Shown here: one piece after another, positions 1-20,754 of the stretch
Layout of the letters: every line of letters begins with the position of its first letter
Position numbering within the stretch: position 1 is the stretch's first letter
Assembly (NCBI GenBank): GCA_965221215.1
Contig: OZ244872.1
Coordinates: 1,867,601 to 1,931,600, forward strand
From: Candidatus Aldehydirespirator sp.
GTDB lineage: Bacteria; Actinomycetota; Acidimicrobiia; Acidimicrobiales; Aldehydirespiratoraceae
Length of the DNA: 64,000 nucleotides
Reading direction: 5' to 3'
Position numbers and translations under genes: made by a program
Notes under the pieces: generated by a model
The model's database searches: none
Seen by the model: only the letters and a program-made list of their open reading frames with translations
What the model was told of the DNA's origin: nothing

Positions 1-2827
1 TCGACCAGCCAGCCCTGTCAAGGACCTGGCTCGCGATGGCGAGGCCCAGGCCGCTGCCACCCGGCTTGGTGGTGAAGCCGAAGTCGAAGACTCGCTCAGC
101 TAGATCCTCGGCGATTCCCGGCCCGGTGTCCCGGTAGATGAGCGCGTCCCCGCGTTTGCTCAACTCGATGAGGCTCTCAGAAGCGTCCGGTCCGGTGCTT
201 TGGATCCAGTACAGGCTGTTGTCGACGAGGTTGATGAACACCGGATAGAACGTCGATGCGTAGCCGGTGATCTTGGCGGCTTCGAACTCGCGGTTTGCGC
301 GGATCTCGGTGTGTGTGGCACGAAGGCGCGCGCGGAAGAGCTCGTTAAGAAAGCGGGCGATGTCACTCCCCTTGATCGTCGTCTTGGTGCGTCTCAGTCG
401 CCGCTGCATCGGCGTCAGCAGCGTGAGGTAGCTGTCGAGATGGTCGAAGTCCCGCCGCAGATCCTCGTAGAGCCCGACCAGCTGAGGATTCTTCTTCGCC
501 CAGGATCCAACCCTTCGCACATCGCTTCGTATGTTGGAGACTGTCGCTCGAAACTCGTGGTCAACCACCGCCAGAGCCAGCCCCAGCTGCACGTATTCGA
601 GTTGGTCGTCGGCCTGGGCTCGAAGTTCGACGATCTCAGCGTCGGCGGCGGCCGCTAGCTCCGTCGGGGCCGGGGCACCGCTGGTGAACACCACATCGCT
701 CGCTCGAAGGAGGTTGGCGACTCGTGACAGCGCCCTGCGGGAGTCGGCGGCCAGCGAGTCCAGGTCCTGCTCGAACTGAGCCTGCTCGCGGATCCAGCCT
801 GTGCTCGCCGAACCGCTCGGACGGGCTATGCCTGCGAGGCGCTTGTCGAAGTCGGCTCGCAGTGTTCGGAGCGCGGCGGTTGCGTTTGCGTTCAACGCCG
901 ACAGCGCTCGGTCGGCATCAGTCTGGGAGGCTGTGATCTCTTCCGTTGCCGCCGCGATCCTCCGCTTGACGAACCGGTCCCGTTCCTGCTCATCGGCCTC
1001 GCGTGCGGCTAGGCGAGCCTCAGTGGCCCCTGCCAGATCGTCGACCAGCTCGAGGGCCGGCCGCACATACGACTCTTCCACATCCGCCGCACCACGTTCG
1101 ACAAACGACAAGTCTTGGCGCATCGGCCCGGACGCTGCGAAGCCCTCCGGCTCGTCGACCTGGAGCGGTGTGACCACCTGGCGCAGGGCTCGTCTGGCCC
1201 GCGCGACCTCTTGCGCCGCTGGCTGAAGGCGATCGGCAGCCGCAAGCTGCGTGCTGAGGTGCTCAACTATCGCTGAAGTCCGTTCCTGGAAATCAGTCTC
1301 GGACAGGTACTCGGCCGCTGATGCCAGCTGTGAACGCAGCCGCCTGCGCCCTGCCGCAGCCTGCCTCTGACGCTCCTTTCGGAGCTTGTCCTCTCGAACT
1401 AGACGTTCGCGGCCCAGCTCGTAAGCGCTGACCTGCGCAGCCTCGCCTCTGAAGTATGTGGCGGCAAGCTGAATGAGGAGGTTGATCAGGAGTTGGCGAA
1501 AGTCGGAGTAGGCACGGCCCGACTTGAAACCCTCCCTGCCCGCCTTCTCCTGTAGGCCAGAGTTCTGCTGGCTCGCAAGGCTCACGGCGCCGAACATCCG
1601 CCGATAGGAGAAGAAGTAGTACGCAGCACCCAAGGAACGGCGCTCCTCGATCTCCAGGTAGTCGAAGTCAGGACGGCCGTAAGGCTGAACCCTGATCCCG
1701 TCCATGTAGACGTACAGGCCACCGAGTCGCCGCAGCTTGGCGTTCATGGAACCAAACGCCTCGGGGTCGAGCCTCGACTCGCTGGCCAAGCCCTGCACCA
1801 CTCCGATTTCGAACGAGAACGGCCCGCAACGCGGCCGCAACGAGTCCGGGCACCTGACATTGAGGTCCGCTGCCTCCTCGTCGAAGATCCTGATCGTGCC
1901 GATGAAGTCGCCGTCCTCGTCGAATTCGCCGTGGATGTGGTGATCTGCTTCCTCAAAGTCCGCCGGTCCGAAGAAGTCGTCGGGCCGCAACAGGCTCTCA
2001 GAGTCGCCGCCGCCCCGGTGATCGACGAAGTCGACGGCGAAGTCGGGGGTAGAGGCCTCGCCGAGCCAGGCGTCGGTGAAGCCGTGCAGCGTTCTCTCGA
2101 ACAGCGATGCTTCCTTAGATCCAGGGGCTCCGATCTCCGCGGCCAGATCCTCCGAAACCGAAGAGACCAGGAACACGGTGCCGGTAGCGCCGAGTGGTCC
2201 CAGGCCGGGGATGGTCCCGTACGGGTCGTCCTGCAACGCGTCCAACGTCGCCTGGATGCCGTCCAGCGCCTGCGTCCACCTCGTCGTTCGACTACGCCGC
2301 CGGAAGCGATTCAGCGCCTCCGCCAGCGGTGCCTTCAGACGGGCCACATCGGCCGCAGTCGGCTGATCGCCGTCGAGTTCCACCAGGCCGACAGGCACTT
2401 CGTCCAAATCGATGCCCGGAAGCTCGAACATCTTCCAGTTGACCAGCGCGGCCACCGCTGGGCAGCCATCCCGCTTGGACACGACCAGGACCTGGCTGCC
2501 GAGAGCACCGATGGCGAACCGGCCGATGCCCTTCTCGCCGAGTTGCACTCTCGGGGTCATCCCTGCGGGTCTTGGCGTCGAGTCGCGCTCCAGCTTCGAC
2601 TCAGTCGCGATCGTGAGCCATGCGCGCTCGAACGTCTCGCGGTCCATCCCGACACCGTCGTCGCTCACCACAAGCACGTTGGGAACTCGGAAGAAGTCGG
2701 CGATCGCGGCGGTGGCGTATGCGTCGTGGGCGTTCTTGAACAGCTCGCTGAGAGCCGTGGGAAGATTGGCGATCTGCTGCCGTCCCAGCATGTCGACCGC
2801 TCGGGCCCGGGCCCGGAAGGCTGTCAT
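1..2827 (-). CDS. Double GHKL ATPase: N-terminal MORC/HSP90-like ATPase module plus C-terminal histidine-kinase-like module (H-box-like + HATPase_c). The 3' end runs off the window.
   Basis: Minus-strand frame is open from ATG 2827..2825 to the window edge. It is absent from the ORF track because no stop lies in the window; the frame was hand-checked at three places. N-terminal motifs: LSELFKNAHDAYA (N-box), VVSDDGVGM (DxGxG), GEKGIGRF. C-terminal motifs: VVDHEFRATVSNIRSD (H-box-like), INLVDNSLYW, YRDTGPGI, KPGGSGLGLAIA. The start overlaps the dcm stop (ATGA). Confidence 0.7.
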   Translation of the reverse strand, partial: MTAFRARARAVDMLGRQQIANLPTALSELFKNAHDAYATAAIADFFRVPNVLVVSDDGVGMDRETFERAWLTIATESKLERDSTPRPAGMTPRVQLGEKGIGRFAIGALGSQVLVVSKRDGCPAVAALVNWKMFELPGIDLDEVPVGLVELDGDQPTAADVARLKAPLAEALNRFRRRSRTTRWTQALDGIQATLDALQDDPYGTIPGLGPLGATGTVFLVSSVSEDLAAEIGAPGSKEASLFERTLHGFTDAWLGEASTPDFAVDFVDHRGGGDSESLLRPDDFFGPADFEEADHHIHGEFDEDGDFIGTIRIFDEEAADLNVRCPDSLRPRCGPFSFEIGVVQGLASESRLDPEAFGSMNAKLRRLGGLYVYMDGIRVQPYGRPDFDYLEIEERRSLGAAYYFFSYRRMFGAVSLASQQNSGLQEKAGREGFKSGRAYSDFRQLLINLLIQLAATYFRGEAAQVSAYELGRERLVREDKLRKERQRQAAAGRRRLRSQLASAAEYLSETDFQERTSAIVEHLSTQLAAADRLQPAAQEVARARRALRQVVTPLQVDEPEGFAASGPMRQDLSFVERGAADVEESYVRPALELVDDLAGATEARLAAREADEQERDRFVKRRIAAATEEITASQTDADRALSALNANATAALRTLRADFDKRLAGIARPSGSASTGWIREQAQFEQDLDSLAADSRRALSRVANLLRASDVVFTSGAPAPTELAAAADAEIVELRAQADDQLEYVQLGLALAVVDHEFRATVSNIRSDVRRVGSWAKKNPQLVGLYEDLRRDFDHLDSYLTLLTPMQRRLRRTKTTIKGSDIARFLNELFRARLRATHTEIRANREFEAAKITGYASTFYPVFINLVDNSLYWIQSTGPDASESLIELSKRGDALIYRDTGPGIAEDLAERVFDFGFTTKPGGSGLGLAIASQVLDRAGWS

Positions 2828-3951
2828 GCGGCTTGCCTTGTGATCTCGGGAGTGCCGTCACCCCTCGGCGCACGCTGGCCTCGGGCGCTGGCGGTCCGCG
2901 TGCCCGCGAACGTCTCGGCGTGCTCCATCAGATGGTGGCCAAAGCGACGTGCGAGCGCGACAGGGACCGCGTTGCCGATCTGTCTCGCCTGTGAGGCCAA
3001 GCTCCCGAAGAACCTGAACTCGGTGGGGAACGTCTGCAGTCGTGCCGCCTCGCGGACACTCAGCGCCCGGTCCTGGTCCGGGTGGCCGAAGCGCCCGTTG
3101 CTGTAGCTGATGCACTTCGTGGTCAAGGTCGGGGCCGCCTTGTCCCAGCTCAACCGGCCGTACACGTCGGTGTGGCCGTCGAAGCCGCCCCGGTGGCAGT
3201 CGGGCCACAGACGCGCGGGCCAGTCCCGGCGGTCGCCTCCCTCGGGCGTCGCACGGATCCGGGAGAGGTTCAAGCTCGACAGCCCCATGGCCCGGTGGCT
3301 GCTCACGTCAGCGTCTTCCTGCCCAGCTGCGATGGGAGGCAGATCGCCGATCCAGTCACGGACCGTAGGGTGGGGGCGCTCGGCGCCGGGACCGTGCGTG
3401 GGGGCTGGCATGTCGATGGGCCCGAGACGGCTCGCCAACAGGACGAACCGCCGCCTTGTCTGGGGCACCCCGTAGTCGGCGCTGGTGATCGTGTCGCAGA
3501 CGACATGGTGCGTCTTGGAGATCTCGTCCACAAACTCCGCTAGAGGGCCCTGCGAGGCGGTAAGGCGCTGCATCCCCGGAACATTCTCCACGAAGATCAA
3601 CTCGGGGTTCAGGGACTCGACGAACCTGAGGAACTCCAGCAGAAGGAATGAGCGGCCGTCGCCGTTGGTCGGCGCGTGGCGGTGGCCGGCGAAGGGCTGG
3701 CAGGGTGCGCACCCCGCGAACAGCCTGATCTGCCTTCCCGACAGCGGCAGCGCAGCTTGAACCTCGTCCGCCTCAAGATCGCGGATGTCCCGTTCGACGA
3801 CGGCAGTCTTCGGAAAGTTCAGCCGGAACGTCGCCGCCGCGTCCGGCTCCCAGTCGATGGCCAGTTCGGGCGCGATACCGGCATGGGCGAAGCCCAGCGA
3901 CGTCCCGCCGCAGCCCGAGAAGAAGTCCGCCAGGACGACATCGGCCCTCAT
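2824..3951 (-). CDS. DNA (cytosine-5)-methyltransferase (Dcm family)
   Basis: 375-aa ORF with the canonical C5-MTase motifs: FFSGCGGTSLGF (I), GCAPCQPFAG (IV, PCQ), FVENVPGM (VI), QTFP, GNAVPV (X). Confidence 0.9.
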   Translation of the reverse strand: MRADVVLADFFSGCGGTSLGFAHAGIAPELAIDWEPDAAATFRLNFPKTAVVERDIRDLEADEVQAALPLSGRQIRLFAGCAPCQPFAGHRHAPTNGDGRSFLLLEFLRFVESLNPELIFVENVPGMQRLTASQGPLAEFVDEISKTHHVVCDTITSADYGVPQTRRRFVLLASRLGPIDMPAPTHGPGAERPHPTVRDWIGDLPPIAAGQEDADVSSHRAMGLSSLNLSRIRATPEGGDRRDWPARLWPDCHRGGFDGHTDVYGRLSWDKAAPTLTTKCISYSNGRFGHPDQDRALSVREAARLQTFPTEFRFFGSLASQARQIGNAVPVALARRFGHHLMEHAETFAGTRTASARGQRAPRGDGTPEITRQAA

Positions 3952-4446: not shown

Positions 4447-5889
4447 GGTGGCGTCTCATCGCCGGTGTAATAGCAGCAGGGGCGTAGGTTCCTTCGAGAA
4501 CCTCAACTCAAGAAGGAGACCTACGCCCGTGCCTGCACGAGTATCGCCCACAGAAGCTGTCCGCGCCGAGATCGACGAGTTGTTCGGCTCGGGCCGCGAC
4601 ATCGCCGAGGTGCTCGAGGAGGTGATGCGCCTGTCGGCGCGGCTCGTGTTGCAGCAGGTCCTCGAGGACGAGGTCACCTCCTGGCTGGGCCGGGGCTGGA
4701 ACTCCCGCGCCGGCGGCGGGCGGGCCGGGCAGCGCAACGGCTACGGCGAGGTGACGGTCAAGACCACCGCGGGGCCCCTGGCGCTGAAGCGCCCGAAGCT
4801 GCGCAACACCACCGAGGCGTTCGCGTCGCAGTTGCTGGGCAAGGGCGTGGTGCGCAGCGAGCCGTTGGAGGCGCTGGTGATCTCGGCGTGGGTGCGGGGC
4901 CTGTCAGACCGCGACATCGAGGCCCTGTTGGCGGAGGCGCTGGGACCGGAGGCCGCCTTGTCGAGGTCCACCGCGTCGCGGATCTGCGCGCGGCTGCGCG
5001 ACGAGTTCGACACGTTCCGCAGCTCAGACCTCTCCGATATCGAGCTGGATTACCTGTTCGTTGACGGCAGCCACTTCAAGATGCACGGCGGGTCGCGCGC
5101 TGAGCCGGTGCTGGTCGCCTACGGCATCACCACCCTCGGGCGGCCGGTGCTGCTGGCCGTGGAGCCCGGCGGCGACGAGTCCTATGACGCCTGGGCCGGG
5201 TTCCTCGACGACCTCGCCGAACGGGGGCTGCGGTCCCCGCTGCTGGTCGTCTCAGACGGCGCGGCAGGCCTGATCGGCGCCGTCGAGCAGAAGATGCCGC
5301 AGTCGCTGCGCCAGCGGTGCCTCATCCACCGCGCCCGCAATGTCTTGGCCAAGGTCCCCGCCGGTCGCCGCGACGAACTCAAGGCCGCGTTCTGGGCGAT
5401 CTTCGACCTCGACGACGACATCGAGCCCGGCCAGGAAGCGGTGAGCGCAGCACAAGCCGGCATCGACGGCTTCGCCCGCCGCTACCAGCGCGAGTTCCCC
5501 GCCGCCGTGCGCTGCCTGCTCGCAGACCGCCAAGCGCTCACCGCGCACCTGCGGCTCCCCGCCGCACACTGGCGCAGGATCCGCCACACCAACCTGATCG
5601 AGCGCACCTTCGGCGAGACCCGCCGACGAGTCAAAGTCATCGGCCGGCTCCCCGGCGAAGCGTCCTGCCTCACACTGGTCTGGGCCGTGCTCGACCGGGC
5701 CTCAAACGGCTGGCGAGGCCTCACCTACACACCCGCCATCGCCCGAGCCCTCACCGAGCTGCGCCACCAACTCCACCAACCCGCCCACACCAACACCGAC
5801 CAGCCCGACCACACCGTCACACGCGCCGCCTAACATGACCACCGGAACCTGCGCCCCAACCGCTATTACACCCAATCTGGGACGCCACC
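4447..5889 (+). mobile_element. IS256-family insertion sequence, copy 1 (1443 bp)
   Basis: Imperfect 28-bp terminal inverted repeats, 22/28 matching: GGTGGCGTCTCATCGCCGGTGTAATAGC (4447..4474) versus the reverse complement of 5862..5889. Flanking direct repeat GGGCCCGAT (4438..4446 and 5890..5898). Differs from copy 2 at only two positions seen (5660, 5731). Confidence 0.9.
4529..5833 (+). CDS. IS256-family (Mutator-type) transposase
   Basis: GTG start 7 nt after AAGGAGA. Typical IS256 transposase sequence: VLEDEVTSWLGR.., YLFVDGSHFKM, LVVSDGAAGL, QRCLIHRARNVL, TNLIERTFGETRRRVKVIGRLPGE. Confidence 0.85.
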   Translation: MPARVSPTEAVRAEIDELFGSGRDIAEVLEEVMRLSARLVLQQVLEDEVTSWLGRGWNSRAGGGRAGQRNGYGEVTVKTTAGPLALKRPKLRNTTEAFASQLLGKGVVRSEPLEALVISAWVRGLSDRDIEALLAEALGPEAALSRSTASRICARLRDEFDTFRSSDLSDIELDYLFVDGSHFKMHGGSRAEPVLVAYGITTLGRPVLLAVEPGGDESYDAWAGFLDDLAERGLRSPLLVVSDGAAGLIGAVEQKMPQSLRQRCLIHRARNVLAKVPAGRRDELKAAFWAIFDLDDDIEPGQEAVSAAQAGIDGFARRYQREFPAAVRCLLADRQALTAHLRLPAAHWRRIRHTNLIERTFGETRRRVKVIGRLPGEASCLTLVWAVLDRASNGWRGLTYTPAIARALTELRHQLHQPAHTNTDQPDHTVTRAA

Positions 5890-5928
5890 GGGCCCGATCA
5901 AGGAGCACCTGCAGAAGGGCTCCCACAG

Positions 5929-6315
5929 GTGAGCGTCCTAGTCCTCGACTCGGGTGCAGTCACCAGCCTGGCACGCCGAGACCCTCGACGCGCGGCGAGC
6001 ATTCGCCATTCCGGCGATGGCAGCCCGCAACTCACAGTTGTTCCCGCAGTCGTTCTGGTCGAGTGTCTTTCGGGGCGTCAGCGCACCGACGCGGTGGTCA
6101 ATCGCTTCTTGAAGAAGTGCAAGGTCTTGGACGCTCCCGATGAGAAGCTGGCTCGGCGGGCTGGTGCCCTGCGAGCGCAGGCCGGTCGGGGCTCAGCCGT
6201 TGACGCGGTGGTAGTAGCGCTGGCAGAGCCGGGCGGAGCGGTTCTCACCCACGACATCGAGGATCTGCAAGCGCTGGCCTCCCACGCCCGTGAGGTGACC
6301 GTCTTCGCCGCCTAG
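5929..6315 (+). CDS. PIN-domain toxin (VapC-like)
   Basis: 128 aa with the acidic residues in PIN order: VLVLDSGA, VVLVECL, SAVDAVVVALA, LTHDIEDL. GTG start overlaps the stop of the upstream IS-split gene. Confidence 0.75.
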   Translation: MSVLVLDSGAVTSLARRDPRRAASIRHSGDGSPQLTVVPAVVLVECLSGRQRTDAVVNRFLKKCKVLDAPDEKLARRAGALRAQAGRGSAVDAVVVALAEPGGAVLTHDIEDLQALASHAREVTVFAA

Positions 6316-6554
6316 CCGGTCCGGTCGTCACGATCCGCGAGAGGCTCGCTCTCCAGGCCGAGCGCAGCCATGAAGGCGGCGGCTTCCTCGTCGGAGATCG
6401 TGTCGTCCTGAAGCTCCTCAACAGACTCGACAACGCCCACGCCCTGCGCTTGGGCGAGTTCTTCGAGCGACCGCATGGACCAGAAGTCCTCGCTATCGGA
6501 TCCACCCGCCAATGCCTGGCCGGGCTGGGGCGGCGGCTGTCCGGGCCCGGTCAC
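6312..6554 (-). CDS. Small acidic protein (80 aa), antitoxin-like composition, co-transcribed with the DUF1156 methylase
   Basis: ATGA overlap with the stop of the 932-aa gene. The segment SLEELAQAQGVGVVESVEELQDDTISDEEAAAF recalls short actinobacterial antitoxins (from memory, unverified). Its stop overlaps the PIN stop on the other strand (CTAG at 6312..6315). Confidence 0.5.
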   Translation of the reverse strand: MTGPGQPPPQPGQALAGGSDSEDFWSMRSLEELAQAQGVGVVESVEELQDDTISDEEAAAFMAALGLESEPLADRDDRTG

Positions 6555-9349
6555 AACAGGGCCTGCTGGGACGGGCCGGCAGCCGCGGCTGCGCCGGTGC
6601 GCAGGTTGGGCCAGGCGGTGATGAGGCCGTTGTAGGCGCCGGCCTCGGCGGCCCAGCCGCGGTCGTTGGCCTTCTGGTACAGCAGGTAGGCAAGCTGACG
6701 AGCCCGATCACCGTTGCCGCCGAGGATGTGCAGGAGTTCGGCCGCCTCAGACTCCGAGCGCTCCAGCCCGGCGGCCAGGTGTTGGGTGGCCTCCCACACG
6801 GTGAACCGGTCGTCATGCACCGGCGACCAGTCGGGATCGAGTTCGCTGCGCTCGTACAGGCGGAACTTGCCGGCCCGGGCCTCGCCGATACCAGATTCCT
6901 CGATGCCGGCCAGGGAGGTGTTCTTGGCTCGGGCCACGCTGTCAGCGTCACCTGAGGGACCGGAGTCGTAGCCATGCTCGGCGAACCAAGTGAGTGCGAA
7001 GCGTGTGTCGGCATCGAGTTCGGCTTCCTCGCCGTCGAGCACTTCACCAAGCACATCGTTGATGATGGCCAGCGCGGCCGACACCGGCATCGACGACCCA
7101 TCGGCCTCCACCACCCGGGCATACCGGGAGAACACCTTGATGCCCGGCCCGATGGTGGACTGTGCCATATCCACCGGAGCAATATTGCCCGACTGCAACA
7201 TCCGCACCGCCTCAGGAAGCTCCTGCCGCAACGCGGCAATGAACTCACCACGCGTAGCTAGAACCGCCGAATCAGGCCGTGGTCGGCAGGCAAGCACGAT
7301 CGAGGACGCGAGAGCGTTGGTGCCTCTGGCGAGAATTCGGCCAGGTGACTCGGTACGCATCGGCCACGTAGCGCAGACCTGCAATCCTGCACCGAAGACA
7401 GCCTGCAAGAACGTGTCCCAACCCGTCGTACGAACCTCTCCATCCTTGGATTCGGTCGCCTTGTACGCGTAGTAGATCGTCGCGGGGACATCTGGTGGCT
7501 GATTCTGCGCAACTTGAGCCATGAACTCCGCCATGCCGGACTCGAAGTGTCGCTCGGCTTCCTCCTTTGAGCCTGCCCGGTGGGTATTCGCAATGAGTTC
7601 TTCAGCTTTGGGAGTCAGCAGTGTCGAGCACTCGTCAGGCCACACGTCCGACAGGTTCCTTCGCAGCCAGACGTAGAAGAAATCCGACAAATCGGCGTAG
7701 GAAATGTTGTCATAGTACGGAGGATCAGTCGCGACGACGCCGCCCGCGGATTCTCGAACGCGCGCACGAGCATCCCGCTGGACAGCTACACCTTGGCGAT
7801 CTTGAGAGCCAGCACATGATGGCAGTTCTGCAATGACCCGCTGAACCTTAGAAAGACAGAGTTCCCAGCTGCCTCCTCGTCCTGAGAAGGGACTTGCTTC
7901 CGCGAAGTCCCATGTCATAGGAATCGCCTGGCGGGCGAACACTTCACGGAAGGCCCCTCGATCATTCATCCATGTGACGACGTTCGACCAGAGATTCGTG
8001 CACTTGTCGATGGTGAACGCCAAGTACGTCACGATTGCATCTGCGTACGCATCGGCACCGCGGCCGCCCTCAAACAATCTCATTCCGTTCGTTGCCAAGC
8101 CAGCAGCCTGCGCATGGGATCGTGCCGACATCTTAACCTGGTGAAGAAGACTTGAGAATTCAGTTAGCGCAGTTAGCTGCCGGGGCGTAAACAGCTTCCA
8201 CCATTCGTCTAGTCCGTAGATGGTAATCCAGATATTGCGAGGATCAAGCGCCACGTCGCTGGTAGGAATCCGGGAAGGCAGACCAGCATCTGCGGCCTCG
8301 ATGTCTTCGTTTGAGGCAGCGCGATACACCTTGCCGTTCGAACTCTCTAGAATGACTGCCATCAACTGATGACGCATGCGCCCAGCAAGGCTCTCCGATT
8401 TGATGTAGCTCCCGGGAATGGCGGCACCCGTCGCAATGCAGGTGCCCTTGCCCCTGTCCACCGTTCTACCGTGGGACGGCTCACCGCCTTCCCGAATCTC
8501 ATAGCTAATCGTCATAGCGTCGCGGTCGATGATCGGCGCGATCCAGACCTTGGGCTTGCCGGGCCGTTTGGCGAGCGTCCACGACGCCACTAGCGGCACA
8601 TGGCCCGACCAGCTCGGGTCCGGCGACTCCACGGTGCGGGCCCAGATCCAGGCGATAGGCGTGAGTTGCTCTCCGTTGGGGCCGGTGGCATCGGGGTACA
8701 GGTGCCCGATGCGCTTGTAGGCCTCATTGCGCATCCACTGTCCATACGCCTCGATGTCGGCAGCGAGTCCCTGGGCCCGCTCCCAGGTGGTGAGGGTCTT
8801 GTCGATGTCGGGATGGACCGGTGGCAGCCCAGCGAAGCGGGGCGGGATCTCAATCGTTGCCTTGTTGATCAGCACCGCCACCGGGTTCAGGTCCCCGGCG
8901 AGCGCAGTGAGTCCGAGTCGCTGCGCCTCCAGCGGTATGGCCCCTCCCCCGGCGAAAGGATCCAAGATCGGCGGAGGCCCATCGGGGAAGCACCGGTCGA
9001 TTTCGGCCCGGGCCTCAGCCAGCACGTCAGCGTTGTTCGAGTTCTCCCACTTGACCAGCCGCTCCAGGATCCCAAACAGCCGCTGCCGCTCAGCATCCAT
9101 CTTCTGCTCACGCTCTGCCTTCTGCTCTTCAGTCTCGTCATCGGGGGTCACGAACTCGTCATAGCCCGAGGGATCATCCACCAGCGATGCCCAGATCACC
9201 GCCCGAGCCGCTGCCAGCGGCCGCCGAGCCCACCACAGATGCAGCGTCGACGGATGCCCATGCCGAATCGACTTCTCCCGCGCCGCCTCAGCATTGATCG
9301 CCGCCAACGGCAAAGCCACCTCGATCAACTTCGGCTTGTAGTCTTTCAC
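6551..9349 (-). CDS. DUF1156-type DNA methyltransferase, probably N6-adenine
   Basis: 932 aa. N-terminus MKDYKPKLIEVALPLAAINAEAAREKSIRHGHPSTLHLWWARRP is characteristic of DUF1156. AdoMet motif LDPFAGGGAIPLEAQRLG, then catalytic VATDPPYYDNISYADLSDFFYVWL. Confidence 0.8.
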   Translation of the reverse strand: MKDYKPKLIEVALPLAAINAEAAREKSIRHGHPSTLHLWWARRPLAAARAVIWASLVDDPSGYDEFVTPDDETEEQKAEREQKMDAERQRLFGILERLVKWENSNNADVLAEARAEIDRCFPDGPPPILDPFAGGGAIPLEAQRLGLTALAGDLNPVAVLINKATIEIPPRFAGLPPVHPDIDKTLTTWERAQGLAADIEAYGQWMRNEAYKRIGHLYPDATGPNGEQLTPIAWIWARTVESPDPSWSGHVPLVASWTLAKRPGKPKVWIAPIIDRDAMTISYEIREGGEPSHGRTVDRGKGTCIATGAAIPGSYIKSESLAGRMRHQLMAVILESSNGKVYRAASNEDIEAADAGLPSRIPTSDVALDPRNIWITIYGLDEWWKLFTPRQLTALTEFSSLLHQVKMSARSHAQAAGLATNGMRLFEGGRGADAYADAIVTYLAFTIDKCTNLWSNVVTWMNDRGAFREVFARQAIPMTWDFAEASPFSGRGGSWELCLSKVQRVIAELPSCAGSQDRQGVAVQRDARARVRESAGGVVATDPPYYDNISYADLSDFFYVWLRRNLSDVWPDECSTLLTPKAEELIANTHRAGSKEEAERHFESGMAEFMAQVAQNQPPDVPATIYYAYKATESKDGEVRTTGWDTFLQAVFGAGLQVCATWPMRTESPGRILARGTNALASSIVLACRPRPDSAVLATRGEFIAALRQELPEAVRMLQSGNIAPVDMAQSTIGPGIKVFSRYARVVEADGSSMPVSAALAIINDVLGEVLDGEEAELDADTRFALTWFAEHGYDSGPSGDADSVARAKNTSLAGIEESGIGEARAGKFRLYERSELDPDWSPVHDDRFTVWEATQHLAAGLERSESEAAELLHILGGNGDRARQLAYLLYQKANDRGWAAEAGAYNGLITAWPNLRTGAAAAAGPSQQALL

Positions 9350-9404
9350 GGATGGTCACGGTACCTGGTACTGACCCGACGGATGCAGATACGGAGGTCC
9401 GCTC

Positions 9405-10550
9405 ATGGCGAACGCTACTCCCCGGGACGCACGTGCCGGATTCGCGATCTACCGTCAGAGGGATGGAGCCATCGAGCTTGATGCCATCAATTCTCGACTA
9501 GAAGAATCCGGTTACGGTCGAATCGCGCAACGCACCCTCACTCACTATCGCAATCTTGTGAAGGCCGGATTCAATCGATACATTTCAATCAACCGCTTCG
9601 ATGTCGCTCGAGCCTCCCGACCCTATGAGAACATGTCCACATTGAGCCGGTATCGATACCACGCTGTCGGCCAAGAGATCATTGTAATCTTCTCGAAGAA
9701 CAGCGAGATACTTGAAGTCCAAGGCCAAATGATCGAGTCGGGCGATGTGGGTGCAGTTCTGACGTTCTCCAACGAGGAGTCTCTTCAAAAACTACGACAG
9801 TATACGCCCCGCCCTGGTGTGTACCTCACTCTACACAAGGTCAATTCACCCACTAGTATCAGCGCAACAGTCATCGAATGCGACCTTGAGAGCAGTCCAG
9901 TTCTTCTTGAAGTCGAGTACACAACGCTTGTCTCCCTAGCTGAGATCGAAGATTCGGTTCCATCGCACAGCGTCTTGGCAGAGTTCACGCTCATTTCTGG
10001 TACCGATGGCCTGGAGGCTATGGATGTCATCGGAAGACGCCTGCACAACTTCTTTGATCTTCTTGAAGGCATGCGCGCGCTGTTGAACGAAGCTGGCCGA
10101 TACTCGGGTGACGATATGTATGCCGCTCCTCCGGTGGTACACGAAATCCGAATTTCTTCACCGGCTGTTTTGCTTCTTCAAGTGTCACATGATCTCATTT
10201 CACTTGTGCCTTGGCCCTTGTTGATCGCGCTGTTTCCGGCGTGGCGCAAGACTTGGTACAAGGGAACTCGAGAGAAACGAGAAGCGAAGTTGGCAGATGT
10301 GGAGCGACAAAAGGCCGAGTTGGAACTGAAAGCAAGGAAGATGGAGACGAGCCTGCACTCTCAAATCGTTGAAAACATGCGTGCCCAAATGCCCGGAGCT
10401 AGTATTCCTGATTCTGTAATAGAACAGATCTGGCTTTCGGCTATTCTTCCATCCTATCGTGCGCTCTCGCGCTCCGACGTTCAAAAAATCATTGTCGAAC
10501 AAGATGACGAAACTGAAGTCTCCAAAGATGGCTCTGACGATGATGGTTGA
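9405..10550 (+). CDS. Hypothetical protein (381 aa) with one predicted TM segment followed by a charged coiled-coil; lower-GC gene
   Basis: ATG is 8 nt after GGAGG. Hydrophobic LISLVPWPLLIALFPAW, then KGTREKREAKLADVERQKAELELKARKME and an acidic tail. No recognisable catalytic motif. GC is visibly lower than the flanks. Confidence 0.6.
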   Translation: MANATPRDARAGFAIYRQRDGAIELDAINSRLEESGYGRIAQRTLTHYRNLVKAGFNRYISINRFDVARASRPYENMSTLSRYRYHAVGQEIIVIFSKNSEILEVQGQMIESGDVGAVLTFSNEESLQKLRQYTPRPGVYLTLHKVNSPTSISATVIECDLESSPVLLEVEYTTLVSLAEIEDSVPSHSVLAEFTLISGTDGLEAMDVIGRRLHNFFDLLEGMRALLNEAGRYSGDDMYAAPPVVHEIRISSPAVLLLQVSHDLISLVPWPLLIALFPAWRKTWYKGTREKREAKLADVERQKAELELKARKMETSLHSQIVENMRAQMPGASIPDSVIEQIWLSAILPSYRALSRSDVQKIIVEQDDETEVSKDGSDDDG

Positions 10551-10568
10551 TGCTGCTGCGCGTGGTTG

Positions 10569-10924
10569 CTAACTTTCATCAGCAAATATTGGCCTGATCT
10601 GTAATTCAAACTTAAGCGATTCGTCGTCATGAACGGACTCGCGTACCGGTTCATCGGGATACACATCCACGGTTCGACCAGTCGCATCCATCCAGTCGAC
10701 GAGAGCGTCGGCCCAGCGGCCTTCCATAAGAGCGTCGCGGATTGCAGCAAGGTGGGTCCCTAGCTGCTTGGGTTCTGTGGAGGCAATCAACTCGAGGGCG
10801 ATTGTCTGGTTGAGGCCCTCCTCGTCCCGTGCGATGAAGACCTCCGGCTCTGTCCCATCTTCGTGGACGACAGCATAGAAGACCCGCTGTAGGCGACGCT
10901 CCCGGTCAACGGATTCATCGCTCA
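10569..10924 (-). CDS. Hypothetical protein (118 aa) immediately downstream of the SPPY methyltransferase
   Basis: Start chosen at MSDESVDRERR.., 5 nt after the stop of the upstream MTase. The longer 156-aa ORF would overlap that gene. No recognisable motif. Confidence 0.45.
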
Positions 10925-10929
10925 TCGTC

Positions 10930-12462
10930 TCACGAGTCGCCTCGGGCGAAGCCAGCGAGCCTCGGGAGGTCGTCGGATGAGAGCATCCGGATGACGTCTC
11001 GCACCGGCTTGTCAGGTCCGATGAGCGTCTGGAGCGCACGGTGCCCGGCGCTGGTCGGCGCGGGCCGATCGGTGGTCAGAAGCACAATCGGAGTGTCCGG
11101 CTCGACCGAATGCAGCACGGCCGCCTTGCCGAGTGCTTTCCAGAGAGTGTCCGTGCGGCGCAACCCGGGACGTTGCGTGACACTGAATGCCCCTGACACA
11201 TCGAAGAACCACTTGCGACCAGACCGGTCTCGAGCCTCAAAGTTGACCTCGACGCCGCAGGGCTTCTTCACCTTCTCTCCAACAACCTCGAAGCCGCACT
11301 GGAGCAGCACCGCTTTGGCCATCACTTGGGCCTTGCGTCCCTCCCGCCCGGCCCTCGCCTGAAAGTCGCCCGGCACGCTGGAATCAGGACGGGTAGCGAC
11401 ATGCGGGGAACTGCCGTTCGACGAGGCCAACGACTCGACGAGGTCCAGGAAGAACTGGCGATCGCTCCTGCGTCTGGTCGACGGCGACGCGGTCACCGAC
11501 CAGCCCACCCCATCGGATCGCTCCTCAAGCCTTTGCCGCTCATCGGCGATACGCCGTTCGGCCAACTCGATGTAGGAGGCGTCGGTGTCGAAGCCGGCGT
11601 AGCGACGGCCGGTGCGGACGGCGGCGACTGCCGTCGTGCCAGCCCCGACGAAAGGGTCGAGGATCAGGTCGCCGCGGTAGGTGTAGAGCTCGATCAGCCG
11701 CTCGGGCAACTCCACGGGAAACGGCGCAGGATGCTCGACGCGCGTAGCCGAAGCCGGGGGTATTTCCCAGACGTCTGTCGTGGCCTCCATGAACTCATCG
11801 ACATAGGCGGAGCCATCCGAGGGCCAGCCTTTCTCGGCGCGCGCGGCGGGTGGCAGCGCCCGGTCGAAGCGGCCCTTGGACGCGATCACCACCCGCTCCG
11901 TGAGGTCTCGCAGCACAGGATTGCCGGGCTGTTGGAAGCTGCCCCACGCGCAGCTGCCAGTGGCGCCCTTGGCCTTCTGCCAGACCACCTCGCCTCGCAG
12001 CAGCAGTCGCAGGCGGTCCTGCAGTATCGCGATCACATCTGCGGACAGGGAGCGATATGGGCGCCGCCCCAGGTTGGCGATGTTCACTGCAATGCGCCCG
12101 CCAGGCTCAAGCTTCCGCACGCACTCCCTGAAGACGTCCTCCAGCATCTTGAGATAGTCGACGTAGCTGGCAGGAACGTGGCCGTGCCCCACGGCCTGCT
12201 CGTACTCCTTGCCCGCGTAATAGGGCGGCGAGGTCACGACGAGAGCAACCGAATCGTCCGCTACATCGCCACACGCGTCCATGTCACGGGCATCGCCCAC
12301 CCAGAGACAGTCAGCGCTCGCATGGGGCTTGATCTCATCATCGTCACAGATCTCTGGAACCGGGAACCGCTCGTAGAACGCCGAAGCGTCGTGAGCCTCC
12401 CGGCGGCTCACGCCGAAGCTCGACGTAGACGTGCCGCGCCTACGGCCGTTCGATGCACTCAC
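10930..12462 (-). CDS. Beta-class N4-cytosine/N6-adenine DNA methyltransferase (SPPY) with a ~190-aa C-terminal extension of unknown function
   Basis: LVVTSPPYYAGKEYE (motif IV) precedes LILDPFVGAGTTAVAAVRTGRRYAGFDTD (motif I), which is the beta order. The C-terminal part (..GVEVNFEARDRSGRKWFFDVSGAFSV..RTDTLWKALGK..) matches no domain I recognise. Confidence 0.8.
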   Translation of the reverse strand: MSASNGRRRGTSTSSFGVSRREAHDASAFYERFPVPEICDDDEIKPHASADCLWVGDARDMDACGDVADDSVALVVTSPPYYAGKEYEQAVGHGHVPASYVDYLKMLEDVFRECVRKLEPGGRIAVNIANLGRRPYRSLSADVIAILQDRLRLLLRGEVVWQKAKGATGSCAWGSFQQPGNPVLRDLTERVVIASKGRFDRALPPAARAEKGWPSDGSAYVDEFMEATTDVWEIPPASATRVEHPAPFPVELPERLIELYTYRGDLILDPFVGAGTTAVAAVRTGRRYAGFDTDASYIELAERRIADERQRLEERSDGVGWSVTASPSTRRRSDRQFFLDLVESLASSNGSSPHVATRPDSSVPGDFQARAGREGRKAQVMAKAVLLQCGFEVVGEKVKKPCGVEVNFEARDRSGRKWFFDVSGAFSVTQRPGLRRTDTLWKALGKAAVLHSVEPDTPIVLLTTDRPAPTSAGHRALQTLIGPDKPVRDVIRMLSSDDLPRLAGFARGDS

Positions 12463-15393
12463 GGCCCGTCAGGCCTGCGGATGTTGCCCGCGTGGCTGTG
12501 CAGCATGATCGGGAAGCCGTTGAGAGTCACGGCAAGAAGCTACAGGTCCTATGCGACACCGACTCTGGAGCCGAGGATCCTCGCGGTAGGGAGGCTCGGC
12601 TCGCACATCAGGACTTTACCGCGTGTGAGGCTCAAATGCCAGTATTGTAATTTCGCTCGACGTAGCTCGGACCCACAGACCAGACACAGATGGACCGTGT
12701 CGAACAGTGCGTTTGATGCTACCTGACAGCCGAGACTGAGCCACGCAGATCAGGTCGGTGGGGTGGCGTAGGTGAGGAGGTCGGCGACGTTGAGGGGGAC
12801 GCTGGTCTGGGCCGGGTGCAGGGTCACGTTCTTGAACGGCTCGACCAGGTAGTGGACCTCGGGTTCGGCGTCGGGGTCTTCGGGGACGGAGACCACGGCC
12901 AGTCGCCAGCGTTCGCGGTTGTTTTGGGACTGGCCTACCTGGCGGCGGCTGACGCTGATCTGTTCGGTTTGGGGTAGGTGGCCTTTGACCTCGATGAAGT
13001 AGCACGCTCCGGTGGCGGGGTCGATGGACAGTACGTCGTAGCCGGGGTTGCCGTGGGCCTGTTCCTCGGGGACCCGGCCCAGTTTCTGTTCGGCCTTCAT
13101 CACTGCGGCTACGGCTCGGCGGTCGGTTTCGGCCTTCTTGGCGGGGTCGACGGAGATGACGGTTCGGCCGGCCAACTCGTCGAGCAGCCCTTGGGGCACT
13201 ACGACCGCGGCTGCAACGATGGTGGGCGGGCTGTTGTGGAGGTCGTCCTCTTGGGTCAGCTCCAGGCGTCGTCGGGCGAGGCGGGCCTGCAGTTCGTCGG
13301 CTCTGGCCCGGGCGCGGCCTGAGTTAATACGGGGTTTCTTGCCTGCTATCTCCTGGGCCTTGATCTCCTCGGTGCGCCGGTCCCAGTAGCGGATCTCGGA
13401 CTCCAGGCGCTCCCGCACTGCATTCCAGACCTTGGAGATCCGGGCGTGGGTGATGGCGGCGACCTCGTCGAAGTGCGGGCCGGCCAGGTGCTCGATGGCC
13501 CAGGACCGGGCCGTGTCCTCGGCGGTTCGGTCTGCCCATTCGAGGTCTAGCTGCCCGTCCAGGAGTGTCTGCTGGTCCTGGGTCAGGGGCGCGTAGTTGA
13601 GGTAGGGCTCATCGCCGGGGTCTCCGACATTGCCGGCGCGGTCGATCTCGACGTAGTGGAACCGGCGTGACACCACTTGGCGGGTGCCGTGGACCTCGCG
13701 TCCGTCGGTGATGGTGTGGTCCAGGTAGACGAGCAGACGTGGATCGGTTGACGGATCGCTGTCGTCTACCAGCACCGCGCCCTGCCGCAGGGTCGAGCCG
13801 AAGTCGGCCATGGCCTTGTTCACCACCGCCGCCAGCAGCGGCGTGCCAGGGGAGATCAGATCGGCCCGCATCGATGCGCCCGGTGGGCTATCGCTGGCGC
13901 GGTTCGGCTGGATGTGGGCCTTGTCGAAGGTCACCCGCTCGTAGCGGTCATGCACCGGCCCGAGGTCGGCCTCGGCGTGGGCCCGGACCGCGGCCGGCAC
14001 CCGGGTGATCTCGAAACGGCCGTGCTCGCGCCCTGCGATCCGTCCGCTGTAGAGGCGCAGGGCCTCGGTGAAGAACGACTCCACGAACCAGGGCTGCAAC
14101 CGGCGGGCCCGAGCGATCTCCATGTCGCGGCGGATCTTGTCGTTGGCGGCAGGATCGGCCAGCCCGGCCACCAGTGCCCGCTCGTCGAGCACACCCTGCA
14201 TCTGGCGCCCGATGTCATCGTCGATCACCTCGTCCATCCACTCGACATGGGCAGGATCCTCATCAGAGGCGATGGCCCGCATCAGCAGGTCGCGCAGCGA
14301 AATGTTGATCTGGGCGTCGCCCAGCACGTCGTACACCTGGTCGCCGTAGACGCCGCGCTGCTCCTCGATCTTGGCGAACAGCCTCTCGAACACCTTGCCC
14401 TCGCGGGTCTCGAACGCGACCAGGTTCCACAGATGGCACGGCCGATGCTGGCCGATGCGGTGCACCCGCCCGAAGCGCTGCTCGATGCGGTTGGGGTTCC
14501 AGGGCAGGTCGTAGTTGACCACCATGTTGGCTGCCTGAAGATTGACGCCCTCGCCGGCCGCGTCGGTGGCCACCAGCACCCGCGCCGTGGGATCGACCCG
14601 GAACCGGTCCTGGATGCCGCGGCGGTCGTGGCGCTTGATCCCGCCGTGGATCCTGACCACCGCCTCCGGCCGGCCCAGCTCGGACTCGATCCGCTCGGCG
14701 ACATAGTCGAGCGTGTCCTTGTGCTCGGAGAACACGATCAGCTTGCGGGCCGAATCTGAGCCGGCGCTCAAATCCAGACCAGAGTCGGACGAGTCCGAGA
14801 GAGCGCCCGTTGCGAAGCGGTCAGAGCGCAACAGGCCCCGCAGCTGGAGCCACTTGGTGTCGACGCCGCTGCGGCGCACGCCGTCGGCCAGCTTCACCAA
14901 CTCCTTGAGCTCCTCGACCTCGGCCTCCAGCTCTTCGGCGGTGCCGGCCGCGGTGGCCGCGTCGATCACGACGTCCTCCAGGTCCTCGCGCTCGGCATCG
15001 TCGTAGTCGTCGAAGTCAAAGTCCTCCAGATCAGCGATCTTCACGCCCTTCGGCAGATCGATCACTGGCACCGGACTGCCGGAAGCAGCCAGACGGCGCA
15101 ACTCCGCGGCCTGGTCGTTCAAGCGGTCCCGGCGGCGGCGCAGGGAGTGGTAGATGGCCGCGGGGGACGATGCCAGGCGGCGCTGGAGACCGGCCAGCGC
15201 GAAGCCGACAATGATCCCGCGGCTCTTGTCGCCCTCCTCGCTCATCCGCGCCGCCCGGTTCATGCCGTTGCGCACGTAGTCGGTGACTTCCTTGTACAAC
15301 TCGGCCTCGGACTCCGAGAGCTCGAAGTTGAGGCTGTGAGCGTGGCGCTGAGGGAACAGGCGCTTGCCCTCAAAGGTCCGCAGGTTCTCCTTG

Positions 15394-16836
15394 GGTGGCG
15401 TCTCATCGCCGGTGTAATAGCAGCAGGGGCGTAGGTTCCTTCGAGAACCTCAACTCAAGAAGGAGACCTACGCCCGTGCCTGCACGAGTATCGCCCACAG
15501 AAGCTGTCCGCGCCGAGATCGACGAGTTGTTCGGCTCGGGCCGCGACATCGCCGAGGTGCTCGAGGAGGTGATGCGCCTGTCGGCGCGGCTCGTGTTGCA
15601 GCAGGTCCTCGAGGACGAGGTCACCTCCTGGCTGGGCCGGGGCTGGAACTCCCGCGCCGGCGGCGGGCGGGCCGGGCAGCGCAACGGCTACGGCGAGGTG
15701 ACGGTCAAGACCACCGCGGGGCCCCTGGCGCTGAAGCGCCCGAAGCTGCGCAACACCACCGAGGCGTTCGCGTCGCAGTTGCTGGGCAAGGGCGTGGTGC
15801 GCAGCGAGCCGTTGGAGGCGCTGGTGATCTCGGCGTGGGTGCGGGGCCTGTCAGACCGCGACATCGAGGCCCTGTTGGCGGAGGCGCTGGGACCGGAGGC
15901 CGCCTTGTCGAGGTCCACCGCGTCGCGGATCTGCGCGCGGCTGCGCGACGAGTTCGACACGTTCCGCAGCTCAGACCTCTCCGATATCGAGCTGGATTAC
16001 CTGTTCGTTGACGGCAGCCACTTCAAGATGCACGGCGGGTCGCGCGCTGAGCCGGTGCTGGTCGCCTACGGCATCACCACCCTCGGGCGGCCGGTGCTGC
16101 TGGCCGTGGAGCCCGGCGGCGACGAGTCCTATGACGCCTGGGCCGGGTTCCTCGACGACCTCGCCGAACGGGGGCTGCGGTCCCCGCTGCTGGTCGTCTC
16201 AGACGGCGCGGCAGGCCTGATCGGCGCCGTCGAGCAGAAGATGCCGCAGTCGCTGCGCCAGCGGTGCCTCATCCACCGCGCCCGCAATGTCTTGGCCAAG
16301 GTCCCCGCCGGTCGCCGCGACGAACTCAAGGCCGCGTTCTGGGCGATCTTCGACCTCGACGACGACATCGAGCCCGGCCAGGAAGCGGTGAGCGCAGCAC
16401 AAGCCGGCATCGACGGCTTCGCCCGCCGCTACCAGCGCGAGTTCCCCGCCGCCGTGCGCTGCCTGCTCGCAGACCGCCAAGCGCTCACCGCGCACCTGCG
16501 GCTCCCCGCCGCACACTGGCGCAGGATCCGCCACACCAACCTGATCGAGCGCACCTTCGGCGAGACCCGCCGACGAGTCAAAGTCATCGGCCGGCTCCCC
16601 GGCGAAACGTCCTGCCTCACACTGGTCTGGGCCGTGCTCGACCGGGCCTCAAACGGCTGGCGAGGCCTCACCTACACCCCCGCCATCGCCCGAGCCCTCA
16701 CCGAGCTGCGCCACCAACTCCACCAACCCGCCCACACCAACACCGACCAGCCCGACCACACCGTCACACGCGCCGCCTAACATGACCACCGGAACCTGCG
16801 CCCCAACCGCTATTACACCCAATCTGGGACGCCACC
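15394..16836 (+). mobile_element. IS256-family insertion sequence, copy 2 (1443 bp)
   Basis: Same ends and inverted repeats as copy 1, same orientation. Flanked by the 8-bp direct repeat TCTCCTTG (15386..15393 and 16837..16844). Confidence 0.9.
15476..16780 (+). CDS. IS256-family (Mutator-type) transposase
   Basis: Same frame and start context as copy 1. One amino-acid difference seen (GRLPGETS versus GEAS). Confidence 0.85.
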   Translation: MPARVSPTEAVRAEIDELFGSGRDIAEVLEEVMRLSARLVLQQVLEDEVTSWLGRGWNSRAGGGRAGQRNGYGEVTVKTTAGPLALKRPKLRNTTEAFASQLLGKGVVRSEPLEALVISAWVRGLSDRDIEALLAEALGPEAALSRSTASRICARLRDEFDTFRSSDLSDIELDYLFVDGSHFKMHGGSRAEPVLVAYGITTLGRPVLLAVEPGGDESYDAWAGFLDDLAERGLRSPLLVVSDGAAGLIGAVEQKMPQSLRQRCLIHRARNVLAKVPAGRRDELKAAFWAIFDLDDDIEPGQEAVSAAQAGIDGFARRYQREFPAAVRCLLADRQALTAHLRLPAAHWRRIRHTNLIERTFGETRRRVKVIGRLPGETSCLTLVWAVLDRASNGWRGLTYTPAIARALTELRHQLHQPAHTNTDQPDHTVTRAA

Positions 16837-17945
16837 TCTCCTTGACCAGCCGTCGCATAACGTCGCTGACATCGGGCACGGCCGGGCCGTCACCGTCGGT
16901 GTCTGCCCCCGATCCGCCGCCACCGCCGTCTCGCAGCCGGCCCGCGAAGCGCTCGGGATCGATCAGTGTCATGAAGGCCAGGAAGTCCTCGTTCTTGCCG
17001 TTGTGGGGCGTGGCCGTCAGCAGCAGCAGATGGCGGGTGCACTCCCGCAGCGTCTCCCCCAGCACGAACCGCTTGGTGCGTCGCAACTCGTCGCCGTAGC
17101 GGTGAGCCGACATCTTGTGGGCCTCGTCCACGATCACCAGATCCCAGTCCGAAGCCTGGACCTTGGCCATCAGCTCCTCAGAGCGCGACATCTGGTCCAC
17201 CCGGGCGATGAGCAGGTTCTTCTCAGTGAACGGGTTGCCGGTTCGAGAGGCTTCCACGGCTGCCCGCGACATCAGGTCGAAGGACAGGCCGAACTTCTCC
17301 CACAACTCGTCCTGCCACTGCTCCACCAAGCTCCCAGGCGCCACGATCAAACAGCGGGCCACATCGCCCCGCAGCACCAACTCACGGATCAACAACCCCG
17401 ACATGATCGTCTTGCCCGCACCCGGATCGTCGGCCAGCAGGAACCTCAACGGCCTCTGGGCAAGCAGCCGGTTGTAGACAGCGTCGATCTGATGCGGGTA
17501 GGGATCAATGTTGGACGTGTCCACCGCTGCGAACGGATCAGCGAGATGGGCCTGTCGCATGCGGCGGGCCTCCGACGCCAGACGGAACATCGCGCCGTCG
17601 GCATCGAAACTCCACCGCCGCTCGGACACCTCCGCCAGCCCGGCCAGGTCGTCGACCAAGATGATCCGGTCACCGAGACCCCCGTCAGCCGTCTTGTACG
17701 TGAGCGTGGCCGAGTTGGCGCCGTGCATCTCCACAGCAACCACCGTCACATCCGCGTCAGCCACCACCCCTGACAGCCGCATCCCCGCAGCAAGATCACC
17801 GAAGCCGAGCGTCACACCGCCGATCCCCCGCACTGAGTCCACCCATGCACCGCTGCCTGCTCCCGGCCGCCGAAACGGCGATTAGATCCGCCAGCAGGCT
17901 ACGCATCCCGTGTGACGCCGACGAGCGGGAACAGGCCCCGGACTG

Positions 17946-20237: not shown

Positions 20238-20271
20238 GACAATCCTGTGCTTCGAGCCGAGCGAGTTCCGA

Positions 20272-20751: not shown

Positions 20752-20754
20752 GTT

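Follow-up and report, generated by a model that had tools for sequence, protein, structure and literature searches.

The DNA analysed here, referred to below as the window, is a 64,000-nucleotide stretch of Candidatus Aldehydirespirator sp. (GenBank assembly GCA_965221215.1, contig OZ244872.1, positions 1,867,601 to 1,931,600 of the forward strand). Its left part holds genes of Hma, a defence system whose definition comprises a helicase, a methylase and an ATPase (Payne et al. 2021, PMC8565338). With a probability of about 80%, the region is one Hma system of the ordinary three-gene type with other defence genes nested inside it. Open reading frames (ORFs) were mapped by combining an ORF listing, a filter on GC content at third codon positions (GC3) and family scans with Pfam, PADLOC and NCBIfam. 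Read from right to left, the direction of the minus-strand hma genes, the map contains the following features, among them two copies (A and B) of an insertion sequence (IS).

16845..17815, minus strand: 5' part of hmaA, encoding the N-terminal region and SNF2 N-lobe, about residues 1-324 (Pfam SNF2-rel_dom/ResIII)
15394..16836, plus strand: IS256-family copy B, 1443 bp, inside hmaA (Transposase_mut, E=1e-68)
12750..15393, minus strand: 3' part of hmaA, encoding the Helicase_C lobe and a C-terminal NOV_C (DUF3883) PD-(D/E)XK nuclease (Pfam)
10930..12462, minus strand: MT510, a 510-aa SPPY beta-class N4/N6 DNA methyltransferase (N6_N4_Mtase, E=1e-35; PADLOC MTase_II)
10569..10925, minus strand: c118, a 118-aa acidic ORF directly downstream of MT510, no family match
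9405..10550, plus strand: c381, a 381-aa protein of an uncharacterised family, GC 0.51, no family match
6551..9349, minus strand: hmaB, a 932-aa DUF1156 N6-adenine DNA methyltransferase with DPPY at residue 542 (Pfam DUF1156)
6312..6554, minus strand: c80, an 80-aa ORF and gene remnant that aligns to the tail of proteins of about 300 aa
5929..6315, plus strand: VapC-like PIN toxin, convergent with c80 (weak NCBIfam VapC match)
4447..5889, plus strand: IS256-family copy A, at the 3' end of a putative VapB-like antitoxin gene starting at 4205
2824..3951, minus strand: Dcm C5-cytosine DNA methyltransferase (TIGR00675 dcm, E=7e-37; PADLOC DruM/MTase_II)
1..2857, minus strand: paraMORC-like GHKL ATPase/histidine-kinase-like protein (HATPase_c_3 + HEF_HK + HATPase_c), truncated near residue 952 of about 963 where the window ends

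An alternative upstream GTG start of hmaA is present at 17842. The GC content of the window is about 0.68 and dips to 0.55 around 9-11 kb. The first-pass annotation, made from the letters alone, had drawn the locus at 6312-17842; this span covers only part of it, as the locus continues past the window's left edge. The two signature genes named there, a DUF1156-type DPPY methylase and an SNF2 helicase with a DUF3883-like tail (12750-17815, minus strand, NOV_C tail, split by the IS), were found as described. The SPPY methylase, the 118-aa ORF and the 381-aa ORF do lie between them. The 80-aa ORF had been placed there as well and is located downstream of the DUF1156 gene instead.

Both signature genes were assigned to Hma by their full-length matches. 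The DUF1156 methylase matched PADLOC HmaB over its full length (1049 bits), and the IS-free reconstruction of the helicase matched PADLOC HmaA at 1290 bits, full length from residue 7 to 1201. Its SNF2 helicase core with C-terminal NOV_C/PD-(D/E)XK nuclease is that of HmaA. Both genes are on the minus strand with hmaB downstream of hmaA, which is the canonical Hma strand and order. Partial matches of the helicase core to DrmD (376 bits) and BrxHII (303 bits) in PADLOC were far behind HmaA, and the NCBIfam DrmD model scored 346 bits, below its cutoff of 610 bits. Type 3 BREX and class 1 DISARM resemble the window in these partial core matches and in being defence systems with methylase, helicase and ATPase; they differ in genes that the window lacks (PglZ, BrxA/B/L, DrmA/B/C and DUF1998), and no DrmA or DrmB gene was present in the window ORF map.

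The same two genes had been equated in the first-pass annotation with the NCBI 'anti-phage-associated' set of DUF1156, DUF499 and DUF3780 proteins, as if that set and Hma were one. They are two systems. The window methylase scored 108 bits against NF042963 (DUF1156_antiphage, cutoff 1000 bits), and the helicase scored 163 bits against the phospholipase D (PLD) anti-phage model NF042964 (cutoff 1100), matching in the helicase core only. A 2026 survey renames Hma as the Type-1 DUF499-centred BREX-related (BR) system, and in that survey the Type-2 BR system alone carries DUF3780 and the HKD/PLD-helicase (PMC12839542). Hma shares with Type-2 a homologous tripartite core, made up of a methylase of the DUF1156 type, a DUF499 ATPase and an SNF2-type helicase. 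Type-2 further needs a standalone DUF3780 protein and an N-terminal HKD/PLD nuclease on the helicase, and neither was found in the window. DUF3780 is not expected here, because Hma (Type-1) never carries it and it defines the sister Type-2. The two types are related but distinct and must be kept apart.

Canonical Hma loci on plasmids of Arthrobacter, Thermus thermophilus HB8 (pVV8) and Gloeocapsa contain, in this order, a helicase, a DUF1156 protein and a 'Swt1 family HEPN' protein of about 1100 aa, with other genes interspersed. The third protein of these loci contains HEPN_Swt1 and DUF499 (Pfam) and was recognised as HmaC in PADLOC at 864-1135 bits. No DUF3780 gene was annotated in the three plasmid loci.

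We next consider hmaA, which is split by IS copy B. PADLOC's curated Hma set admits no pseudogenes, and in this the window copy differs from it. The two IS copies differ at 2 of 1443 positions (99.86% identical) and have the same terminal inverted repeats, GGTGGCGTC.../...GACGCCACC; no further copy was found in the window. Each copy is flanked by its own matched pair of 8-9 bp target duplications. Copy B has the 8-bp duplication TCTCCTTG at 15386-15393 and 16837-16844, and the duplication of copy A is GGCCCGAT or GGGCCCGAT. Removal of the IS and one 8-bp duplicate gave a single hmaA ORF of about 1204 aa, in which the break falls at about residue 324, between both helicase lobes. The restored HmaA is 94-95% identical to the intact HmaA of three related loci (L006, L066 and L088), and the closest relative (L088/L089) has an empty site at each of the two IS positions. 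The target duplication, the restored frame, the intact orthologues and the empty sites indicate that the insertion into hmaA was recent and simple. The helicase and nuclease motifs of the reconstruction are intact (DEAH at residue 230; GYDV...IEVKG at residues 1108-1128), which is consistent with recent inactivation. Since hmaA is split, restriction mediated by HmaA has most likely been lost in this copy, as judged from the broken reading frame, whereas hmaB is full length. The locus thus presents a recent IS knock-out of its nuclease-helicase arm with the methylase intact.

IS-mediated deletion of hmaC was considered and rejected, given the matched target duplications on both IS copies and the empty sites in L088. 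The insertion of copy A replaces the last codons of the antitoxin gene and might unbalance the toxin-antitoxin pair; when an 8-bp duplication is removed, the VapB-like antitoxin frame runs on into vapC. Signs of decay at the locus (IS in hmaA, the c80 remnant, IS in the VapB antitoxin gene) are ordinary. The earlier suggestion of a decayed locus holds in this respect; the loss of the ATPase, which had prompted it, is most likely only apparent.

That no DUF499-type ATPase and no DUF3780-sized gene lies in the window was borne out. Neither DUF499 nor DUF3780 was matched by any window ORF, the orphan ORFs gave no hits in Pfam or PADLOC, and a tblastn search of the window with three HmaC proteins returned no match with an E value below 0.4. 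Downstream of hmaB the window extends for only 6550 bp, and the last gene (GHKL, 1-2857) is cut by the left edge. The window alone gives no verdict on the ATPase, because the locus continues beyond this edge and the gap between hmaB and hmaC in relatives is up to 9.3 kb. A missing partner beside a window edge is not to be read as a new variant.

We therefore rely on related loci. The survey comprised 80 loci from one-per-species genomes, mostly metagenome-assembled genomes (MAGs) of Acidimicrobiia and many of them sponge-associated judging by their names; window proteins and HmaC were mapped onto all 80 (loci are cited by L numbers). The closest HmaB among the one-per-species representatives is 80% identical. 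Among the 61 loci whose upstream flank is 9 kb or longer, 43 have HmaA and HmaB collinear, in one order and on a single strand, as do the three plasmids from other phyla; in L016, hmaA lies downstream of hmaC instead. Where 9 kb or more is available downstream of hmaB (60 loci), HmaC follows it on the same strand in 53, at distances between 13 bp and 9.3 kb. Dcm and GHKL homologues (65-66% identical) are present in each of the three widest gaps (L015, L017 and L030). In these three, GHKL is followed by Response_reg_2, an HNH gene, an MT510 homologue (L017 and L030 only) and hmaC. GHKL is followed by Response_reg_2 in L015, L017, L022, L030 and L089, with hmaC farther on except in L022. Two separate Hma loci per genome were seen in OZ220743.1 (L020, L043), OZ243946.1 (L036, L037), OZ220727.1 (L014, L046), JAJEHD01 (L004, L011) and CBDCSK01 (L007, L019), and at L019, L021, L036 and L037 hmaB stands without hmaA or hmaC within 10 kb.

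The closest syntenic relative is the JGI contig Ga0393978_000024 (L088/L089), which was reached through the MT510 homologue P0115 (91% identical). Window positions 1-17919 are collinear with this contig at 82-90% nucleotide identity. Its gene order is HmaA, MT510, c118, c381 remnant, HmaB, c80, VapBC, Dcm, GHKL, Response_reg_2 and HmaC. Protein identities to the window are 94% for HmaA, 91% for MT510, 79% for c118, 78% for HmaB, 84% for c80, 94% for VapC, 88% for Dcm and 85% for GHKL. In L089 the 963-aa GHKL gene is followed by a 528-aa Response_reg_2 gene and then by a 1085-aa HEPN_Swt1+DUF499 gene. This hmaC starts 1655 bp past the position equivalent to window base 2.

A candidate for the missing protein of the source genome itself was also found. 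Proteins P0001 and P0116 are 100% identical to the window c381 and MT510, and P0487 is a full-length HmaC of 1082 aa (PADLOC, 946 bits) that we infer to come from the same genome. P0487 shares 96% identity with the HmaC of L006, 94% with that of L066 and 91.5% with that of L089, and the HmaA proteins nearest to the window's are found at the same loci (L006, L066 and L088/L089). Taken with the collinear contig, this suggests that hmaC most likely begins some 1.65 kb outside the window, to the left of position 1, with the truncated GHKL gene and Response_reg_2 preceding it. The apparent loss of the ATPase is most likely an artefact of the window edge. A HEPN_Swt1+DUF499 HmaC occurs in all close syntenic relatives, and the putative copy P0487 would supply the third component expected of Hma; the window differs from a complete locus in that hmaC is outside it.

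For the way in which Hma works we follow the literature (PMC12839542, PMC11232893). HmaB, as a DUF1156 N6-adenine methylase, would mark host DNA. HmaC, in which a STAND-like DUF499 ATPase is preceded by an N-terminal HEPN RNase of the Swt1 type, would recognise the invader, its HEPN domain being possibly a last-resort effector. HmaA, an SNF2 translocase fused to a PD-(D/E)XK nickase, would move along foreign DNA and nick it; antiviral activity was demonstrated by experiment for the homologue of Halomonas meridiana, whose helicase and nuclease activities were both required for T4 defence (PMC11232893). In the present copy the minus-strand order would be hmaA, cargo, hmaB, cargo and hmaC, the restriction arm being most likely dead, hmaB intact and hmaC most likely just beyond the left edge.

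Several points weigh against the reading of the region as one ordinary Hma system. The adjacency of hmaC is taken from relatives, a scan of metagenome contigs for exact 51-nt matches returned none, and the link of P0487 to this genome rests on an indirect assignment, not on an accession. P0487 could come from a second Hma locus, since two such loci occur in some related genomes. Seven of the 60 relatives, among them L022 with its Dcm/GHKL cargo, have no HmaC within 10 kb. That the split hmaA has lost its function is deduced from its sequence, and protective methylation by HmaB could not be demonstrated in the one experimental study of the system (PMC11232893).

The same points bear on the possibility that the locus is a truly decayed two-gene remnant, with hmaC deleted, hmaA broken by the IS, hmaB orphaned, assorted cargo around it and the HmaC of the genome coming from a second locus. 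The 64-kb window has no trace of HmaC and holds two IS copies, downstream of hmaB there is decay (c80 is what remains of a gene, and the PIN gene that goes with it has disappeared), L022 has a transposase after its Dcm/GHKL cargo, several related genomes do have two Hma loci, and hmaC is lacking in 19% of hmaA neighbourhoods (PMC11232893). However, the window ends inside cargo that precedes hmaC in L015, L017, L030 and L089, and a contig collinear with it over all 18 kb goes on to hmaC after a further 1.65 kb. Moreover, the nearest relatives of P0487 come from the same loci as those of the window HmaA, and the matched target duplications leave no IS-mediated deletion evident. We consider a decayed remnant clearly unlikely.

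The other genes of the region had been described as unrelated cargo, but gene embedding is documented for about 63-66% of Hma loci. In one analysis, 62.7% of 1485 Hma systems had embedded genes, many of which were defence systems, and 96.7% of the embedded genes were co-oriented with the flanking Hma system (bioRxiv 10.1101/2024.01.29.577857). An independent survey found insertions in 66.5% of Hma loci and termed the region a defence-gene insertion hotspot (PMC11232893). In our related loci the hmaA-hmaB junction exceeded 500 bp in 31 of 43 cases and the hmaB-hmaC junction in 29 of 53. The junctions of the window fit the published embedding pattern. They differ from it in two respects: the nested c381 gene is on the opposite strand, against the 96.7% of co-oriented genes, and the nested 80-, 118- and 381-aa proteins and the methylase C-terminal domain have no match among the PADLOC HEC/PDC candidates at E<=0.01.

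The nested genes would form independent modules in the two junctions. The module of the hmaA-hmaB junction would be MT510, c118 and the convergent c381; those of the hmaB-hmaC junction would be the remnant of a cassette of a protein of about 300 aa and a PIN protein, the VapBC pair and the Dcm, paraMORC-HEF_HK and Response_reg_2 module. These modules probably act independently of Hma. With at least four separate modules in one locus, the region is a clear case of Hma junctions as insertion hotspots in sponge-type Acidimicrobiia.

It had also been proposed that the locus is an undescribed variant in which other genes supply the effector function, so that MT510, c118 and c381 would replace HmaC as sensor or effector alongside HmaA and HmaB. 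The order and orientation of the three genes are indeed kept directly upstream of hmaB in L007, L012 and L084, and also in L088, where c381 is degraded. Indirect evidence suggests linkage to an MT510 homologue for at least 11 c381 clusters, often on contigs of 3-19 kb, and neither c118, c381 nor the MT510 tail belongs to a known family. But full-length HmaC occurs alongside the cassette in L012, L084 and L088/L089 (in L007 the HmaC match covers only residues 1-177), and homologues of the cargo, including Dcm/GHKL, occur alongside HmaC in L015, L017, L030 and L088/L089. MT510 is found without c118 or c381 just before hmaC in L017, L023, L024 and L030. Lone homologues of c381 are found in a DISARM/McrBC island of Ilumatobacter nonamiensis (L087), beside a type I restriction-modification (RM) system and a reverse transcriptase (L090), and in housekeeping surroundings (L085/86 and L092). 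In the closest relative c381 is degraded while the rest of the locus is kept. Because the cargo co-occurs with HmaC, its modules occur alone elsewhere and embedding is published, the variant is unsupported, and we regard it as very improbable. That an unrelated methylase and helicase came together by chance in a defence island, as the mosaic of several defence-type modules, IS elements and uneven GC might suggest, is refuted by the synteny survey, in which HmaA and HmaB are collinear in 43 of 61 loci and in three plasmids of other phyla, and by the full-length matches of both proteins to system-specific PADLOC models; a lack of collinearity in related genomes, which would have told against one system, was not what the survey showed.

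What remains of interest in an ordinary Hma locus with nested genes is the uncharacterised cassette, especially the c381 family. There is a modest case for novelty, and it is confined to the nested genes that have no library match, namely the c381 family, c118 and the C-terminal domain of MT510. By the published 'guilt-by-embedding' logic these are reasonable candidate defence genes. It is possible, though on the whole unlikely, that the MT510/c118/c381 cassette upstream of hmaB is a previously undescribed defence module and the c381 family a new stand-alone effector or sensor that moves between defence loci and may respond to a nucleotide signal.

MT510 has SPPY at residue 78 and N6_N4_Mtase over residues 72-302, followed by about 190 further residues. 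Its full-length homologues were listed at 58-91% identity, and all of those listed conserve a C-terminal domain of about 145 aa (approximately residues 365-510). No Pfam, PADLOC, PHROG or PDB sequence match was found for this domain. The AlphaFold2 (AF2) model of MT510 was poor overall (pLDDT 50.6), with values of 66-92 in the C-terminal domain (370-510), where the predicted topology is helix, three strands, helix and strand. The domain may be called restriction-endonuclease-like in the topology of this model only, and the usual D...(D/E)xK signature was not evident in it. A Foldseek search with the full MT510 model gave matches only to the methylase core, so the fold family of the C-terminal domain could not be assigned. 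c118 was found in the same position at 59-79% identity in L007, L012, L084 and L088 and had no family match in PADLOC, NCBIfam, Pfam or PHROG.

The c381 family is compact. One search returned 114 homologue clusters, and 324 clusters at 50% identity were found, mostly from Acidimicrobiia-type metagenomes; almost all full-length members are about 370-420 aa. No match to Pfam, PADLOC, NCBIfam or PHROG was obtained for c381 or for 38 divergent members. The AF2 model was good (pLDDT 85.8). In this model an N-terminal helical domain (residues 1-75) holds the invariant R43, H47, Y59, N63 and D66, and is followed by tandem beta-barrels (residues 86-200 and 244-261) and, over 289-356, by a long coiled coil. 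The ORF had been described as a membrane and coiled-coil protein; the membrane assignment is unsupported and was discarded, as the model of helices, beta-barrels and coiled coil has no convincing transmembrane helix. The best Foldseek matches in PDB were barrels of the PilZ/YcgR type, over about 100 residues with E about 2e-3 and a TM-score to target of about 0.5-0.76. The predicted likeness to PilZ/YcgR-like cyclic-di-GMP (c-di-GMP) receptors is at the level of the fold only. The c-di-GMP motifs RxxxR and (D/N)xSxxG were not evident in the conserved columns of c381, and Pfam PilZ was not detected in the 38 divergent members. PDB sequence searches with the c381 profile and with the MT510 C-terminal domain gave noise only, and a Foldseek search of the c381 model against viral structures was uninformative.

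c381 in L088 (11858-12304) is a fragment corresponding to residues 13-161, while MT510 and c118 are kept in both L088 and the window. As c381 is intact in the window and fragmentary in the closest syntenic relative, gain or loss of the gene takes place over short times. At 0.51, the GC content of c381 is far below that of the genome (about 0.68-0.72).

The genes between hmaB and the left edge also recur in relatives. Residues 11-72 of c80 align to the C-terminal tail of ORFs of 295-337 aa in L084, L066, L046 and L031. In these four loci a protein of about 300 aa and then a PIN protein of about 137 aa lie between hmaB and hmaC. The same cassette is seen at several stages of decay in L009, L010, L088 and the window, and L088 has the same 80-aa remnant at 84% identity. 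The match to the tail and the degradation of the cassette in several loci identify c80 as a gene remnant, and the idea that it stands in for DUF3780 was dropped, as it is the tail of a gene for a protein of about 300 aa. Intact copies of the cassette lie at 12813-14240 of L066 and 5751-7052 of L084; the protein of about 300 aa has no Pfam family, and its C-terminal 50 residues or so look like an antitoxin-type tail.

The VapBC-like pair of the window (4205-6315, plus strand) is convergent with hmaB. L008, L032, L033, L044 and L045 likewise have a VapC/antitoxin pair in the hmaB-hmaC interval, on the opposite strand.

Dcm is 88% identical and syntenic in L088/L089. Two-component-like elements with Response_reg_2 as well as HEF_HK have been described in association with Dcm methylases and with paraMORC ATPases (Bellieny-Rabelo et al. 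2021, PMC8011034). The window resembles these elements in having Dcm followed by the HATPase_c_3 + HEF_HK + HATPase_c protein, to which relatives add a Response_reg_2 gene and some, or often, an HNH gene. It differs from them in the place of the module, which sits within the hmaB-hmaC junction of an Hma locus, and in that the Response_reg_2 gene is off the window; this gene is adjacent in L015, L017, L022 and L089.

On the other side of the locus, core genes of the xanthine-dehydrogenase family lie to the right of position 17842. Tandem paralogous genes for molybdopterin (xanthine-dehydrogenase-family) large subunits are located at 17946-20237 and 20755-23433 on the minus strand, alongside genes for a 2Fe-2S subunit (20272-20751) and an FAD subunit (23112-23972). 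This minus-strand gene set (17946-23972) is the core-genome border of the island and immediately adjoins the start of hmaA.

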